Assembly: GCF_964204645.1 (NCBI RefSeq)
Contig: NC_134026.1
Coordinates: forward strand, 21,548,150-21,612,149
Reading direction: 5' to 3'
Length of the DNA stretch: 64,000 nucleotides
DNA from: Tubulanus polymorphus
Lineage: Eukaryota > Animalia > Nemertea
The position numbers and the translations under genes were made by a program. The notes under the pieces are model-generated. The model searched no databases, was not told the origin of the DNA, and was given only the letters and a program-made list of their open reading frames with translations. Positions 15,162 to 27,132 of the stretch are shown here, piece by piece (within the stretch, counting starts at the first letter, position 1; every line of letters begins with the position of its first letter).

Positions 15162-16015
15162 ATGGACACTATAAACAGAGAAGATCATGTGTACACAGCT
15201 AAATTAGCTGAACAAGCCGAACGTTATGACGGTAAGTCCTTTACATTATATCTAGTTTTAGACGATACGTATTTTCCGCTGAGAAATCTTCCTCGGCTTG
15301 ATGATCGACGCCCTGTCTCAATAAATGCACTGGTTTATGGGCTCATTTTTATCGCGGCTTAGCTATAGATAGAAATTTCGTTTCAAATCTTTGATGTTGT
15401 TAGCGTTAGTTTTTTGTCAATCGTAAATAACTAGCAAATCAATCGCGTACGATTTTGATGTATCGTCATTGTATTTGTACGACCTTTTTATTTGCCCTGC
15501 CCCCTTTTTTTATTGCCTGAGAAAAGGGTCCTTATGATTTTGCTTGTCTTGTTGCAAGAGGGCGAGGTGAATGCGAAAATATCATCAATGCATTGACAAT
15601 GAAGTAAACTTGAGCCCCAGCGAGCATTTGTAATTGTTCGTGAAGACCAAATATATTGATATTGATCACATGATAGTGGCCTGAATTTCTGATGAAATGC
15701 TTAATGTACCAGACCGTTCTACTCCTGTCTTATCGAAGTCATTTATATGAAGAATGGTGCATGCATAGGAGGAGGAGGCTATGTCTTGGATGAAACGGAA
15801 ATGCTATTTATCTTACAGAAATGGTGGATGCCATGAAAAAAGTAGCCAATCTAAATGTAGAATTGTCGATAGAAGAACGAAATTTGTTGTCGGTAGCGTA
15901 TAAGAATGTGATAGGAGCTCGAAGATCATCTTGGCGAATAGTTTGCAGCTTAGAATTGAAAGAAGATTCTAAGTCAGCTGAAAAGAGAGCTAAGATCGCA
16001 GAGTACAAGGCAGTG
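15162..16015 (+). CDS. YWHAE: 14-3-3 epsilon gene 2, exons 1-2 (putative constant exons)
   Basis: 15162-15231 ([28 protein letters not shown]) and 15819-16015 (MVDAMKKVA...[10 protein letters not shown]...IAEYKAV|GTGAG), ending in phase 0. Confidence 0.93.
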
Positions 16016-16953
16016 GTGAGTTTGGAATAAATTTTTGATGGGTGTTTTCTTGTGATGTAGAAGTCGAGAATTCGGCGAGATATTTCCACCATTTTTCGGG
16101 GGTTTTCTTGCCTCGTAATTGAGGTCATCAATTAAGTTGGTCAATAGAAGGCTCTGATAGTAGGCGTCAGTGCATTTCATGTCATACGTAATCTGCTGCC
16201 TTTGATCATAATGAATCATGTAGTGGCTGGTTTGTTCAAGATTTAGATGCTGGATGGTATAAACTGAATGTTTTTTATGCAGGACTTCAGCCGTCAAGGT
16301 TCATTTCATATCTTAGAGCATACAATGCGTTAATGAATCCTTAATGATGATGATGCTGCCCTGTTTAGGGCCAATCCTTATATGCATACTGTTAATATTC
16401 CATATTAAACTTTCGACAATGTTCCTTATTTGAATTTTGATTAGTTGCATGTTAGCTTGATAATTAGGTGGAATTGAATGATATTTTTGACGATTTTCCT
16501 TGTCGCCACTGTAATCGATTGACTTCAGTGATTATCAAAGTAGCTTTTTTATTCTACTTTAAGGTATTTCACTATTGGATGTATTAATGTTAGGCATTGT
16601 TATACTTTCCGAAGTAATCTTTGACATGGATCTCGAAGTAATCTATGACTTCCGAGATTGTGATTTGGTATTAGGCTGGGTAACAGTGACACTATCCTAT
16701 TCCTGTTTATCACATATATCTAACCATACAACATTGCAATAGTATGAACCATGATTTCTGTAACATTTCTGCGCTGTCTTTTTCAAACGTGTTAACTGAA
16801 ATACGGGTTGATTGTAATGGAAAGGTTGCTTACTGTCAATTGCGTTCACGTAAGACTAGGATTTCCATATGTATAATATGGCTTGAATTCGAAGGTGAAA
16901 TTATATTTTTTGCGATATGTCGATGGCTTTAATAGTTGAGGAGAAGTAACAGG

Positions 16954-23013: not shown

Positions 23014-25924
23014 AACTAAGTGGTGTCATTCCTTTGACTCATCTAGTAATCCAATGTTTTTCTTGTTACGTTCACCCATTGGCGAGGATACCTACTATTA
23101 ATCCTGTGGATGGGAGAACTCCAAGAGAATTACTGGTTCAGATCTGGATATAAACAGAAAGGACTGATCACCATTTCATCATGTTACTTCGGAATAACTA
23201 TTGAGAAGACTTAACTATTTTGACTGGAATTCACTGTGTCCGCTTGTGATAATTTAACTATTAATTATTGATATCATATATTTTTTTTTGTTTTGACTTA
23301 ATGACGGAGGTAGTCATATAATGCTGATAAAGCAAGCGGGACTTGTGCCACCAAGGAAGATAATGTGGCGATATATTTATTCCCCCCAGAGAGACTTTGA
23401 TTAAAAAAAAAAATAGTGTTTACCTAAGTTAACCAGAGGAAATGGTAGTAATTATTAGAAATTTCATATTGCTTTTTAACTTAAAAATCATTAAAACATC
23501 TTTCACAAAATTAGATCAGTTTGGTTTTGTTTTGAACGTCATCGAGTTTGTAGTTTTAAAAAAGATGAAGTTGTTGTCATGGCATGCAACACTAACTAAG
23601 AGAGACTGATAATGGACTAAATGAAGGAATATTTGGAATCTGTTCACTCGTCGTCTATGCAGATTTATGTTTTAGAAGCGACAATTATATCCATGCGGCT
23701 ATAGTGAACTGGTGCTTTGGTGTCGATTACGGCGGCTAAAATTCAATTGAGTCTCGTACCTAATACGAAAATAAAAAATCATCTAGGCATGAGAGCTGTT
23801 AGTGTTGCCTGTATTCAAACATCTTAGGTTCCACATTAAAAAGCTTTGATGGTTCATAAATAACTATTCAATCAGTTTTCGTTGATTATTCAAGGTGTGC
23901 TGTTGTATTGTTTTATTTAGCGAATCTTAAAAAAAAACTGTATTGTTATGATGATAACTCTCTCAATTCTGATGTTGCTCGTTTTTGCGTTTATCTCTTC
24001 GAATGATGATGATGATTATCAAACCCCCTGTGTTATACTTGTCGCTCTTCGTCGCCAAAGAGAGCTATATTCAACTACTACTTGCGTACTCAGTTGGTTG
24101 AGGTTCAATTCTATCCGGCAAACAATGAATGAAATGAAGCCTTGGTTCGAAAATATGAATGTTCAATTGCAGGGAGTTCATCAGATGAAAAATTCAGATA
24201 TTTTCTGCCATATATTATATGCATATAGCGAACAAATTTTTAAGCATACACGTATTGAGTTGAATAAAATAAATGCAATCTTGGTGTCTTGATCCTTAAA
24301 CTCTTCTGAGTGCAGTGGATGTTGATTTGTTCAGTGTGCGTGTGTGTGTCCTTCCTTTATCCTTGATGACTTGCGCTTCGAAAAGAGAAAGATTTCTCCC
24401 AGTTGCTTGAAAGCTGAATTTAGTAAAGTTATTTCAAAGGAGTATTTGACGGGTTACTTAAGAGCCGATCGTCTTTAAGATTCGGTCTGAAGAACGCTTA
24501 GTCGCAATGCGAGGTGGGCGAGTTGCCTCTCTGACAGTCGTCAAAAATAGAATGTACCATTCTTCGATGATGCTAATGACTGGTCTGCGATCGGTATTAA
24601 TAATCTAGGGCTCATGTCACTGATTCTGCCATCGCCAATGCCACCTAACAGACAATGGGGTCAGTTCTTTCGTGACCTGAGTAAGGCCTAAATTCAATTT
24701 TCAAGGAACTGGTGCCTGTATAGATTATGGCTATTTCGTAATGTTTTTTAAGTGCAAGCAAAATGATAAGGGGAAGGTATGGTAGATCCATTAAATAGCT
24801 GATAGGAATAACTACTTTGTATCTGGCCTAGCAATTTCAATTATACCACTTCATGGGATAATGTCATTAAGAATTTTGAGTTTTTGAATAAAATTTGACA
24901 TTACAACGGAGGAAATCATCCTATCGAATTTTGTTTTCATGCATGTTTGATGAGCAAATTTCGTGCTGTGTTCGGCTTGCGGTGAATGCATCCTGTGCGC
25001 GAGGAATTTCGCCAGACCAGCTCGGACTATGATTTTTAAACTACAATCGGATCGTCCGTCCCATTCTAAGAGAAGCTCATGTTGATATGTTATTTCTCTA
25101 CGAGGGCTCATTTCTATTTCATCATAAATAATTATGTGCTTACACAATTATCCCCTTGATGCCACTGTCATACTTCTGCGTTCATATCTACCTGGTCCAG
25201 TAGTACGTCTTCAGGTGTGTGCATATCCTTTGTTGTGTTGGATGCCGGTAGTTATAAATTGCGATGTATGGGATCCTCTCCGTGCAGGTATTCACACTAA
25301 AAGAGTGGCTGAGCTGTTTTCACAGTTCGAATTCAGCGGTATCTGCTGGGCATCGAATGACAATTTCTGGCTTGGGGTCATTCATTTATTTCGCATTGGG
25401 GGAGGGGTCAATGTATATGAAAAAATGGCCGATTTTGTGTACAGAGGGGGAGGGGGTTGAAAAATTTGAATTTTATGCGTACGTAATAAATGAAAAATCC
25501 CCTTGTCAGGGAAATGAATATTTAAGTTCCCAGGATTAATATACATGTAACTGAATATCAAATTTTTCCTGGGACAAAAGGAAATATTTGGAACTCACAT
25601 TTTTTCCGAAGTGTCCTCAAAGGACGAATAGTCCTTGAATTCATTCATTCTCAACAAGCCCTGAATGCTGTTGAGATATACTTATTCCTATGAAATTCTT
25701 GTACGTAAATAACAATTGAGAAGTAACTACTGTCGACTGCCTTACAATTGAATCAGGAAATTTTACAAACACTCAATTTATACCCTATTCCCATACTTAA
25801 TTCAGTAGGTAATTAATTGGGGAAAATCTCAGAGTCATAAGTATGTCAAATCTTGATAGTAAGTTGTTTATAAATGATGAAAGAAAACATTCTTAACAGG
25901 GCGGTATTCCATCTATATTTTTAG

Positions 25925-27132
25925 ATAGAGAAAGAATTGGAAGATATTTGTAATGATATACTGCTAGTTCTGGATGAACATCTAATCAAGAATGCAGAAT
26001 TTGACGAAGCCAAGGTGTTCTACCATAAAATGTAAGTAAAAATGAAAATAATGTATCTGATTCCATAATGCCAGAGACCCTTGTGGCTCTGATCCTTCAT
26101 TCATCTTGTTCCATATGCCCTTTGAAGTGACAGTCCTCGAAGTTTTCGTAAATGTTCTCCCTCCAAGTAAGAATTTGAACAGCAGGCCATTTTGAGAGTT
26201 CCCGTGGTCGAATTTTACAACTCGTCACACTCTGGAACTAGCCCCGGAACAGTCAACCACCCTTCATTTTTATCCGCTATTCCCAGCTGCTACCAAGTAA
26301 AAGCTTAGTCGTGAATTTATTAATGCTTTTAGTTTCTGATTTTCCGATAGTGGTGGATAACCAGGAGTTGACTGCATATTGTGCTAAATGACTGTGAATA
26401 ACTCAACTGATGTAGAATATGATTTTCAGGAAGGGGGATTATCATCGTTATTTGGCCGAGTTCGCCATTGCACCCGGAAGAAAAGCGGCGGCTGACAAGA
26501 GTTTAGAATCTTACACGAAAGCTCAGGAGATCGCAGGTAGTCTGCCGACCACTCATCCAATTCGTTTAGGGCTAGCTCTGAACTTCTCGGTGTTCTACTA
26601 CGAAATTCTGAGTTCGCCGGAGAAAGCATGCGGTCTCGCGAAGAAAGCGTTCGATGACGCGATCGCCGAACTGGACACGTTGAGCGAGGAAAGCTACAAG
26701 GATTCGACGCTGATCATGCAGCTCTTAAGAGACAATCTCACACTGTGGACAACTGACATGAATACTGAAGGTTCGTTCAATATCTTTTATTTTAATCATT
26801 ACTTGATTCCTTAAAAACTCATTCTAAACGGAAATTGTTTTTGAAGGTGCTTGAAACGCCTTTAATTTGAGAAAAATGTCGGAAACTCTATTAAAACTAC
26901 AATAACTTTGAGAAATAGGCGATTAGGTACTTACGAAATTGTATATTAGACTAAAAATCAAACCAAAATCAGTACATTTTGAACCAGGATCTTTTTCCTC
27001 AATTTGATTGGCAGTAGCCAAATTAGAAACTAAGTTTGATAATGTCAATTGATAATGCCTTGCAATTTTTCAGAAGGCGACAGTGCCAAGGCTGAAGACG
27101 CCGAAGACCAAGCCCAGCAACCTCAATCATAA
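25925..27132 (+). CDS. YWHAE: 14-3-3 epsilon 3' cassette c (exons 3c-5c), most canonical epsilon sequence, no exons 1-2 of its own
   Basis: 25925-26031 (IEKELEDIC...AKVFYHKM), 26430-26770 ([12 protein letters not shown]...[20 protein letters not shown]...[32 protein letters not shown]), 27074-27132. Long AU-rich 3'UTR, AATAAA at 29982. Confidence 0.92.

Follow-up and report, generated by a model that had tools for sequence, protein, structure and literature searches.

The window analysed here, a 64,000-nucleotide stretch of Tubulanus polymorphus contig NC_134026.1, harbours a 14-3-3 epsilon locus composed of two heads and four intact tails, arranged in the order U-u-D-a-b-c. A head is defined as a promoter with exons 1-2, and a tail as exons 3-5; heads are denoted by capital letters and tails by lower-case letters. 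The features of the locus are as follows.

7440..7615, + strand: promoter/5' untranslated region block and exon 1 of head U (coding sequence 7546-7615); block conserved with head D
9256..9452, + strand: exon 2 of head U, with a phase-0 donor at 9452
10309..12516, + strand: tail u, exons 10309-10412, 11676-12007 and 12467-12516; U+u is XP_074643841.1 (P0009)
15056..15231, + strand: promoter/5' untranslated region block (conserved) and exon 1 of head D (coding sequence 15162-15231)
15819..16015, + strand: exon 2 of head D, with a phase-0 donor at 16015
17489..18698, + strand: tail a, exons 17489-17595, 17687-18012 and 18655-18698; D+a is XP_074643844.1 (P0004)
21988..23013, + strand: tail b, exons 21988-22094, 22205-22539 and 22973-23013; D+b is XP_074643842.1 (P0005)
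25925..27132, + strand: tail c, exons 25925-26031, 26430-26770 and 27074-27132; U+c is XP_074643840.1 (P0010)

Exons 1 and 2 of head D total 267 nt and end in phase 0, and when joined to tails a, b and c they gave open frames of 247, 249 and 257 amino acids, respectively, with GT-AG introns throughout. This agrees with an earlier note on this DNA, which had placed exons 1-2 of head D and the three intact tails, each with a phase-0 first acceptor, at the same positions. The note had further read the locus as one head serving three tails, with exons 1-2 occurring once. Whilst this holds inside 15162-27132, a second promoter, exon 1 and exon 2 lie upstream (7440-9452), and the description should read two heads and four tails. 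The upstream paralogue U-u is complete, spans 7546-12516 and has its head 6-8 kb upstream of head D. The promoter blocks of the two heads align with each other; that of head U includes, at 7470, what we take to be a YY1-like motif, and the start of head D lies where the sequence is rich in CpG (14.0-15.4 kb).

No trace of a head was detected between 18.7 and 25.9 kb, either by tblastn with three head peptides, to an E-value of 20, or by nhmmer --max with profiles of promoter plus exon 1 and of exon 2, and the claim that this interval lacks any copy of exon 1, exon 2 or the promoter is thus upheld. The possibility of a decayed exon 2 at 21570 was ruled out by the absence of an nhmmer match. The argument that each tail has its own AATAAA carries no weight, since 19 of these motifs occur in the 19 kb between 12 and 31 kb; the first to follow the stop codon lies at a distance of 1.9 kb in tail a, 0.76 kb in tail b and 1.1 kb in tail c. 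Neither 3' ends nor extra promoters were located at the locus by AATAAA, CpG or promoter motifs. Misassembly by duplication, which had been named as a possible refutation, is argued against by a window free of N, by protein identities of only 59-72% between the tails, and by saturated synonymous sites.

Annotated joins, products and history of the tails

Four of the eight possible head-by-tail translations, D+a, D+b, U+u and U+c, were exactly equal to RefSeq models, and every junction discussed here is taken from these models and the sequence. Gene D is annotated with isoforms X1 (D+b; XP_074643842.1, 249 amino acids) and X2 (D+a; XP_074643844.1, 247 amino acids), and gene U with isoforms X1 (U+c; XP_074643840.1) and X2 (U+u; XP_074643841.1), with the poorly conserved last exons 5b and 5c contained exactly in the models. 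A protein search with exon 2 of head D retrieved, among the 120 matches listed of 5344, two that were 100% identical and two that were 75% identical, all four being T. polymorphus RefSeq models. The D+c protein, though in frame, was found neither among those 120 matches nor among the matches listed in a second protein search, which covered at most 7992 candidates and brought up chiefly unrelated eukaryotes. Since no D+c protein was found, and since RefSeq joins tail c to head U, tail c was assigned to U, to which it probably belongs, rather than to D. The proposal of alternative 3' halves on a shared N-terminus is supported for tails a and b, which are represented by isoforms X2 and X1 of gene D, with a block of the intron pairing ahead of b as described below, whilst the proposed join 16015>25925 (D+c) is left without support.

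The D+b join is very probably real. As annotated, U+c requires a 16.5-kb intron, inside which gene D lies on the same strand; this join is likely to be genuine, with less assurance than D+b, whilst production of D+c at a notable level appears rather unlikely. Misplacement of reads is an improbable source of U+c, since the last 20 bases of exon 2 differ between U and D at seven positions, as do the first 20 bases of exons 3u and 3c.

All four RefSeq products scored 320-337 bits against PF00244 (cut-off 33), and U+c, the only product searched against solved chains, scored 352 bits on those of epsilon and at most 317 on those of zeta. The exon 2/3 join corresponds to the boundary of residues 88 and 89 in mammalian epsilon, a point that we take to lie within helix D. 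At all 28 groove positions compared (assumed here to be K50, R57, R130, Y131 and the lining residues), the four products and mammalian epsilon were identical, contrary to the earlier suggestion that part of the ligand groove is swapped. As the groove is unaltered, the exchange of tails is predicted to change the second half of helix D, the outer surfaces, the loops and the acidic C-terminus.

Non-synonymous divergence (dN) between pairs of tails was 0.22-0.35, and synonymous sites were saturated in five of the six pairs, with a synonymous divergence (dS) of 1.58 for u and a; the corresponding values for heads U and D were dS 2.1 and dN 0.19. These figures point to constraint, and because synonymous sites are saturated whilst dN is low, all four tails appear to be old copies under purifying selection, not haplotigs or dead ends. 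Canonical epsilon tails are 88-96% identical among themselves, and the four Tubulanus tails are about 61-77% identical to them. Tail c had been regarded as the most canonical; however, a and c were both approximately 76% identical to seven canonical epsilon tails. Among 111 columns invariant in nine canonical proteins, 16 were changed in c, 20 in a, 26 in b and 31 in u.

In phylogenetic analysis, tails u and a were grouped with support of 97/97 in a first tree and 94 in a second tree of 22 rows, and have several derived residues in common, whilst a deletion of one residue and a longer exon 4 are common to b and c. Four malformed rows had stayed in the first tree, namely two zeta models in which an exon occurs twice, Notodromas, and Pinctada unit 2, and the bootstrap of that tree was unsettled; these four rows and 12 others were dropped from the second. 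In the zeta-type models of a nematode and an ostracod (P0148, P0172) an internal segment is present twice, as if both mutually exclusive exons had been read in. Holding b and c together gave the best likelihood of the six groupings tried, 5.35 above the free tree. On the opposite side, neither of the free trees placed b and c as sisters, and approximately unbiased tests rejected no rival tail grouping (p 0.19-0.30). We infer from these comparisons that u and a are sister tails (type 1) and that b and c are type-2 tails. The ancestor would have consisted of a head with a type-1 tail near to it and a type-2 tail further away, and duplication would then have given U with u, D with a, and the two type-2 tails b and c, such that each head would now have one near and one far tail.

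Conserved blocks in intron 2 and their proposed role in the choice of tail

The second introns of U and D could not be aligned with each other except for a collinear series of common blocks, while the heads stand at the dS of 2.1 given above. These blocks, and a predicted partner of one of them, are located as follows.

9643..9668, + strand: E0 in U intron 2, for which no long-range partner reached significance
9841..9897, + strand: E1 and E1b in U intron 2, with CAG/GTAAG at 9869-9876 and a pyrimidine tract before the pseudo-5' site
10077..10197, + strand: E2a/E2b (10077-10120) and E3'/E3 (10149-10197) in U intron 2, with predicted alternative pairings
16752..16777, + strand: E0 in D intron 2, a docking site predicted to serve cassette b
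16945..17006, + strand: E1 and E1b in D intron 2, with CAG/GTAAG at 16973-16980; conserved with U
17257..17386, + strand: E2a/E2b (17257-17300) and E3'/E3 (17334-17386) in D intron 2; conserved with U
21565..21596, + strand: predicted selector, a partner of about 24 bp for D E0, 0.4 kb before the 3b acceptor

Similarity between U and D gave E-values of 2e-6 for E2, 3e-5 for E1 and 3e-4 for E3'/E3, with E1b being short. In both genes, E1 is a pyrimidine run ending in a CAG/GTAAG pseudo-5' splice site. The 8-mer CAGGTAAG has four occurrences on the + strand of the 64 kb, namely both E1 sites, the true donor of exon 4a, and one elsewhere. When E1 was compared with what we take to be the 5' end of U1, eight matches were counted, which is no more than for most true donors at the locus.

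Two helices were predicted in both introns: E1:E2b, at -32.0 kcal/mol in U and -26.6 kcal/mol in D, and E2a:E3, at -23.0 and -29.6 kcal/mol, respectively, in addition to a weaker alternative, E2a:E1b (-10.2 and -11.8 kcal/mol). In nested folding, the states in which E2 pairs upstream or downstream are mutually exclusive and separated by 7.5 kcal/mol in U and 0.2 kcal/mol in D; a partial pseudoknot of the E2 pairings is also possible in these models. At the outer pair of E1:E2b both bases differ, with G-C in U against A-U in D, a double change. In U, the best stem in intron 2 was better than all 100 shuffles; in D it was better than 99 of 100, and the second stem of D was matched by 11 of 100. 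The element region of U as a whole folded with a z-score of -2.7 (0/100 shuffles as good).

A long-range pairing was predicted between E0 of D and the site at 21565-21596 before tail b, with approximately 24 bp, one bulge and an energy of -30.9 kcal/mol, which was reached in 0 of 1152 shuffles (mean -18.8, standard deviation 1.9); the next best + strand partner of D E0 within the window had -22.1 kcal/mol. Among 13 block tests, this pairing alone reached 0/150. E0 of U had only about -17 kcal/mol with the same site, U-to-b pairing was not above whole-intron shuffles (16/60), and no selector before c was found for either head in the block tests and whole-intron scans. A -34.1 kcal/mol match of E0 turned out to be U's own E0 on the minus strand. 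A further D-to-b duplex, between 16931-16956 and 21672-21698 (1/200 singly, 2/20 in a scan), was chosen post hoc and crosses the E0 helix, and is not claimed. The 5' part of U E0 (9643-9655) is complementary over 11-12 bases to the acceptor of D exon 2 (15812-15824; -15 to -17 kcal/mol), which in such a model could be masked by it.

Taken together, we lean slightly towards a scheme in which each head has two alternative splicing partners, its near tail and a single far tail (a or b for D, u or, likely, c for U), with the choice likely steered by RNA pairings in intron 2. That the conserved blocks govern tail choice is, on its own, a somewhat better prospect. By analogy with Drosophila PGRP-LC, in which RNA pairing activates a near acceptor and masks the adjacent 5' splice site (PMC6191721), the most likely mode is choice in cis between 3' cassettes via competing RNA pairs. 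E2 would first pair upstream with E1/E1b, such that the pseudo-5' site is masked, the intron is looped out and the near tail is favoured. Pairing of E2 downstream with E3'/E3 would instead free CAG/GTAAG for U1 binding or recursive splicing, and in this freed state E0 would dock on the selector before b, with exon 2 being joined to the far tail. Which pairing state favours which tail is a guess. The first front, U, would have to jump over the whole of gene D to reach c. The E0 pairing provides moderate, model-based support for D+b that is independent of the annotation, and none for either route to c.

Several observations weigh against this scheme. Conservation of E0, which lies about 200 bases before E1, is weak when taken alone (E 0.11-0.18), and two paralogues yield only the one double change. 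The element region of D as a whole folds no better than shuffles (z -0.8, 23/100). The strength of the E0-selector pairing is only moderate, because a whole-intron scan with no prior on E0 reached the D-to-b value in 4 of 120 shuffles and because the link from E0 to the duplex was drawn after the list of stems had been seen. From U intron 2 to the region before c, no pairing was better than shuffles (whole intron 12/60, E0 73/150, E1 flank 12/200). A cis U+c join must skip 10 acceptors, one promoter and three 3' ends over 16.5 kb. Annotation pipelines chain protein alignments, and U+c may be a chain of the best-matching head and tail. In favour of the scheme, the blocks were absent from intron 2 of other animal epsilon genes (0 of 5 distinct introns), although this is weak evidence, because the species are distant animals. 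Rfam gave no match at the element; its three weak matches between 7 and 28 kb, with E-values up to 1, all stayed below the gathering score. The exact E1 pattern had no match in metagenome contigs.

The burden of reading through 10 acceptors and gene D would be spared if U+c, and perhaps D+b, were made by mod(mdg4)/lola-like trans-splicing, in which head transcripts would stop in intron 2, the pseudo-5' site would hold U1, and the far tail would be carried on a separate transcript. The last common intron here has a conserved pseudo-5' site together with structure, the same pair of traits as TSA/TSB (PMC4387717), with conservation seen between two paralogues only, and a CpG-rich stretch precedes tail b (20.6-22.4 kb). 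However, each head also has an ordinarily joined near tail, which means that intron 2 is not always where transcription ends; neither b nor c is preceded by a copy of the head promoter; the 25.4-26.0 kb region is CpG-poor, and the 3' flank of c is as CpG-rich as the patch before b. The eight U1 matches of E1, equalled or exceeded by most true donors here, fall below the 9-bp criterion (PMC4387717), and all tails are collinear on one strand. This route is considered improbable. A broader version is doubtful as well: that both heads share a nested tail array through a conserved two-state RNA switch at a U1-binding pseudo-splice site, by which each head is directed to a far tail of its own, with U reaching c across gene D by trans-splicing or recursive splicing, in a mod(mdg4)-like system arisen independently in spiralian 14-3-3.

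No more probable than the trans-splicing route is a model in which all three tails a, b and c are joined to D, U is an ordinary paralogue with one tail, and the RefSeq U+c is an annotation chimera. D+c is in frame and its jump, at 9.9 kb, is the shorter one; the searches for a U-to-c pairing yielded none; and D 16352-16365 can form 14 bp with 25895-25908, just before the 3c acceptor. This pairing was reached in 2 of 200 shuffles as a single test; it was, however, ordinary in a whole-intron scan (40/120) and covers the likely branch point of exon 3c, and it was not retained. The lack of D+c among the protein matches listed, with D isoforms confined to X1 (249 amino acids) and X2 (247 amino acids), also speaks against the model, as does the retention by U of the whole intron 2 element, for which a one-tail gene would have no clear need.

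The joins could also be as annotated with the element serving as a poison exon, an expression-limiting dead-end recursive site or an editing hairpin, and with tails chosen by competition between splice sites and poly(A) sites. E1 does read as branch point, pyrimidine tract and CAG/GTAAG, and many 3' variable regions need no RNA pairing (PMC6191721). Nevertheless, U and D have no conserved acceptor in common upstream of E1, the E1 site of D is preceded by an AG at a distance of 8 bases, and the E0 pairing before b would be left unexplained; such a function has little probability. That b and c are headless leftovers, or that their heads were lost in assembly, is highly improbable given intact frames, splice sites and 28/28 groove residues at saturated dS, a window lacking N, and RefSeq models that carry exons 5b and 5c exactly.

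Surroundings, related systems and significance

Elsewhere in the window, Pfam matches identified, in the order listed, an FtsJ-type methyltransferase, eIF3c and a DnaJ-domain protein, with stretches at 30.6-35.3 kb (-), 38-46 kb (+) and 56782-57600 (-). Frames at 52.8-53.1, 55.3-55.7 and 1.5-2.8 kb resemble TYW1, RAD1 and GGNBP2, respectively, the last of which had no Pfam match. Intron 1 of U contains nested inverted repeats at 8102-8832, with 58-nt arms at 84% and a 160-nt imperfect palindrome (8637-8796), amid which lies a tRNA-like fragment (8415-8474) that in part recurs inverted at 7153-7166. Intron 3 of tail u harbours an 83-nt inverted repeat that is 87% complementary (10685-11035). 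Short dispersed repeats were found in both orientations at 10627-10656, 11318-11384, 11570-11617, 22570-22626 and 25373-25503; this family, present in introns of u and b and ahead of c, resembles the remnant of a small transposon.

The arrangement of common 5' exons followed by tandem multi-exon 3' cassettes resembles that of Drosophila PGRP-LC, CG42235 and Pip (PMC6191721). As predicted here, the PGRP-LC type has a docking site that lies in an intron next to an alternative 5' splice site, with selectors before the cassettes (PMC6191721). The present locus has homologous cassettes of common phase behind shared 5' exons, with b and c lacking a head of their own; its predicted E0 pairing is before b only, and the local E2 has two competing partners. 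It differs from PGRP-LC in that two paralogous heads each carry the element and share a four-tail array, with gene D nested in the predicted U+c intron, and in that the internal 5' site cannot extend a coding exon and a selector is predicted for b only.

Within the same protein family, Drosophila 14-3-3 zeta swaps one mutually exclusive internal exon, whereas in the present epsilon-type gene the variable part is the complete 3' two-thirds, three exons long. Competing RNA pairing has been reported to choose the zeta variant (cited in PMC6191721). The mod(mdg4) and lola genes likewise have common 5' exons, alternative groups of 3' exons, and a pseudo-5' site with conserved structure (PMC4387717, PMC6237743, PMC13490949), though the E1 motif is unlike the TSA core and the near tails here are collinear. 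Mite sDscam-beta resembles the locus in its tandem paralogous clusters, joins across gene borders and docking/selector pairing (PMC9258826); in the mite clusters a variable 5' part is joined to a constant 3' part, whilst here both parts vary, with only four of eight joins on record.

Of 80 metagenome loci, six were epsilon genes of animals whose three intron positions agree with those here and whose intron 2 is complete (two of the six being identical), and the exon 2/3 intron is therefore ancestral. In the two of these loci with long 3' flanks, no second tail was detected downstream within 4.9 kb (L026) or 5.4 kb (L055). Among 291 splittable stored proteins, a panel that is not a fair species sample, a 100% identical head with tails less than 85% identical occurred only in the two Tubulanus pairs. 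A protein search for orthologous isoform sets returned mollusc and annelid epsilons among the matches listed. Two bivalve models, Mercenaria XP_053376610.1 (P0001) and Pinctada KAK3083831.1 (P0002), consist of two tandem epsilon units fused, each from exon 2, and "isoform X2" of Ruditapes (XP_060602524.1; P0291) has a divergent tail. The bivalve cases represent either tandem genes of which an exon 1 was missed or alternative units, each running from exon 2 to the end, behind one shared exon 1, and the fused models hint at a parallel expansion.

This kind of design is known from arthropods, to which all the cited cases of RNA-pairing control of 3' cassettes and of trans-splicing driven by a U1 site belong, and the joins are already in the automated RefSeq annotation. 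No description of alternative 3' halves in 14-3-3 epsilon was found in the open-access literature, and none of the articles naming T. polymorphus concerned this gene, judging by title or the start of the abstract. The locus would provide a compact splicing switch, with short blocks held across two old paralogues, one long-range pairing, and a predicted same-strand nested join. In one of the most conserved of animal proteins, four divergent tails have been kept and are, as annotated, mixed on two heads with the groove fixed, and such a groove-fixed swap would single out what the outer surface, helix D and the C-terminal tail contribute.

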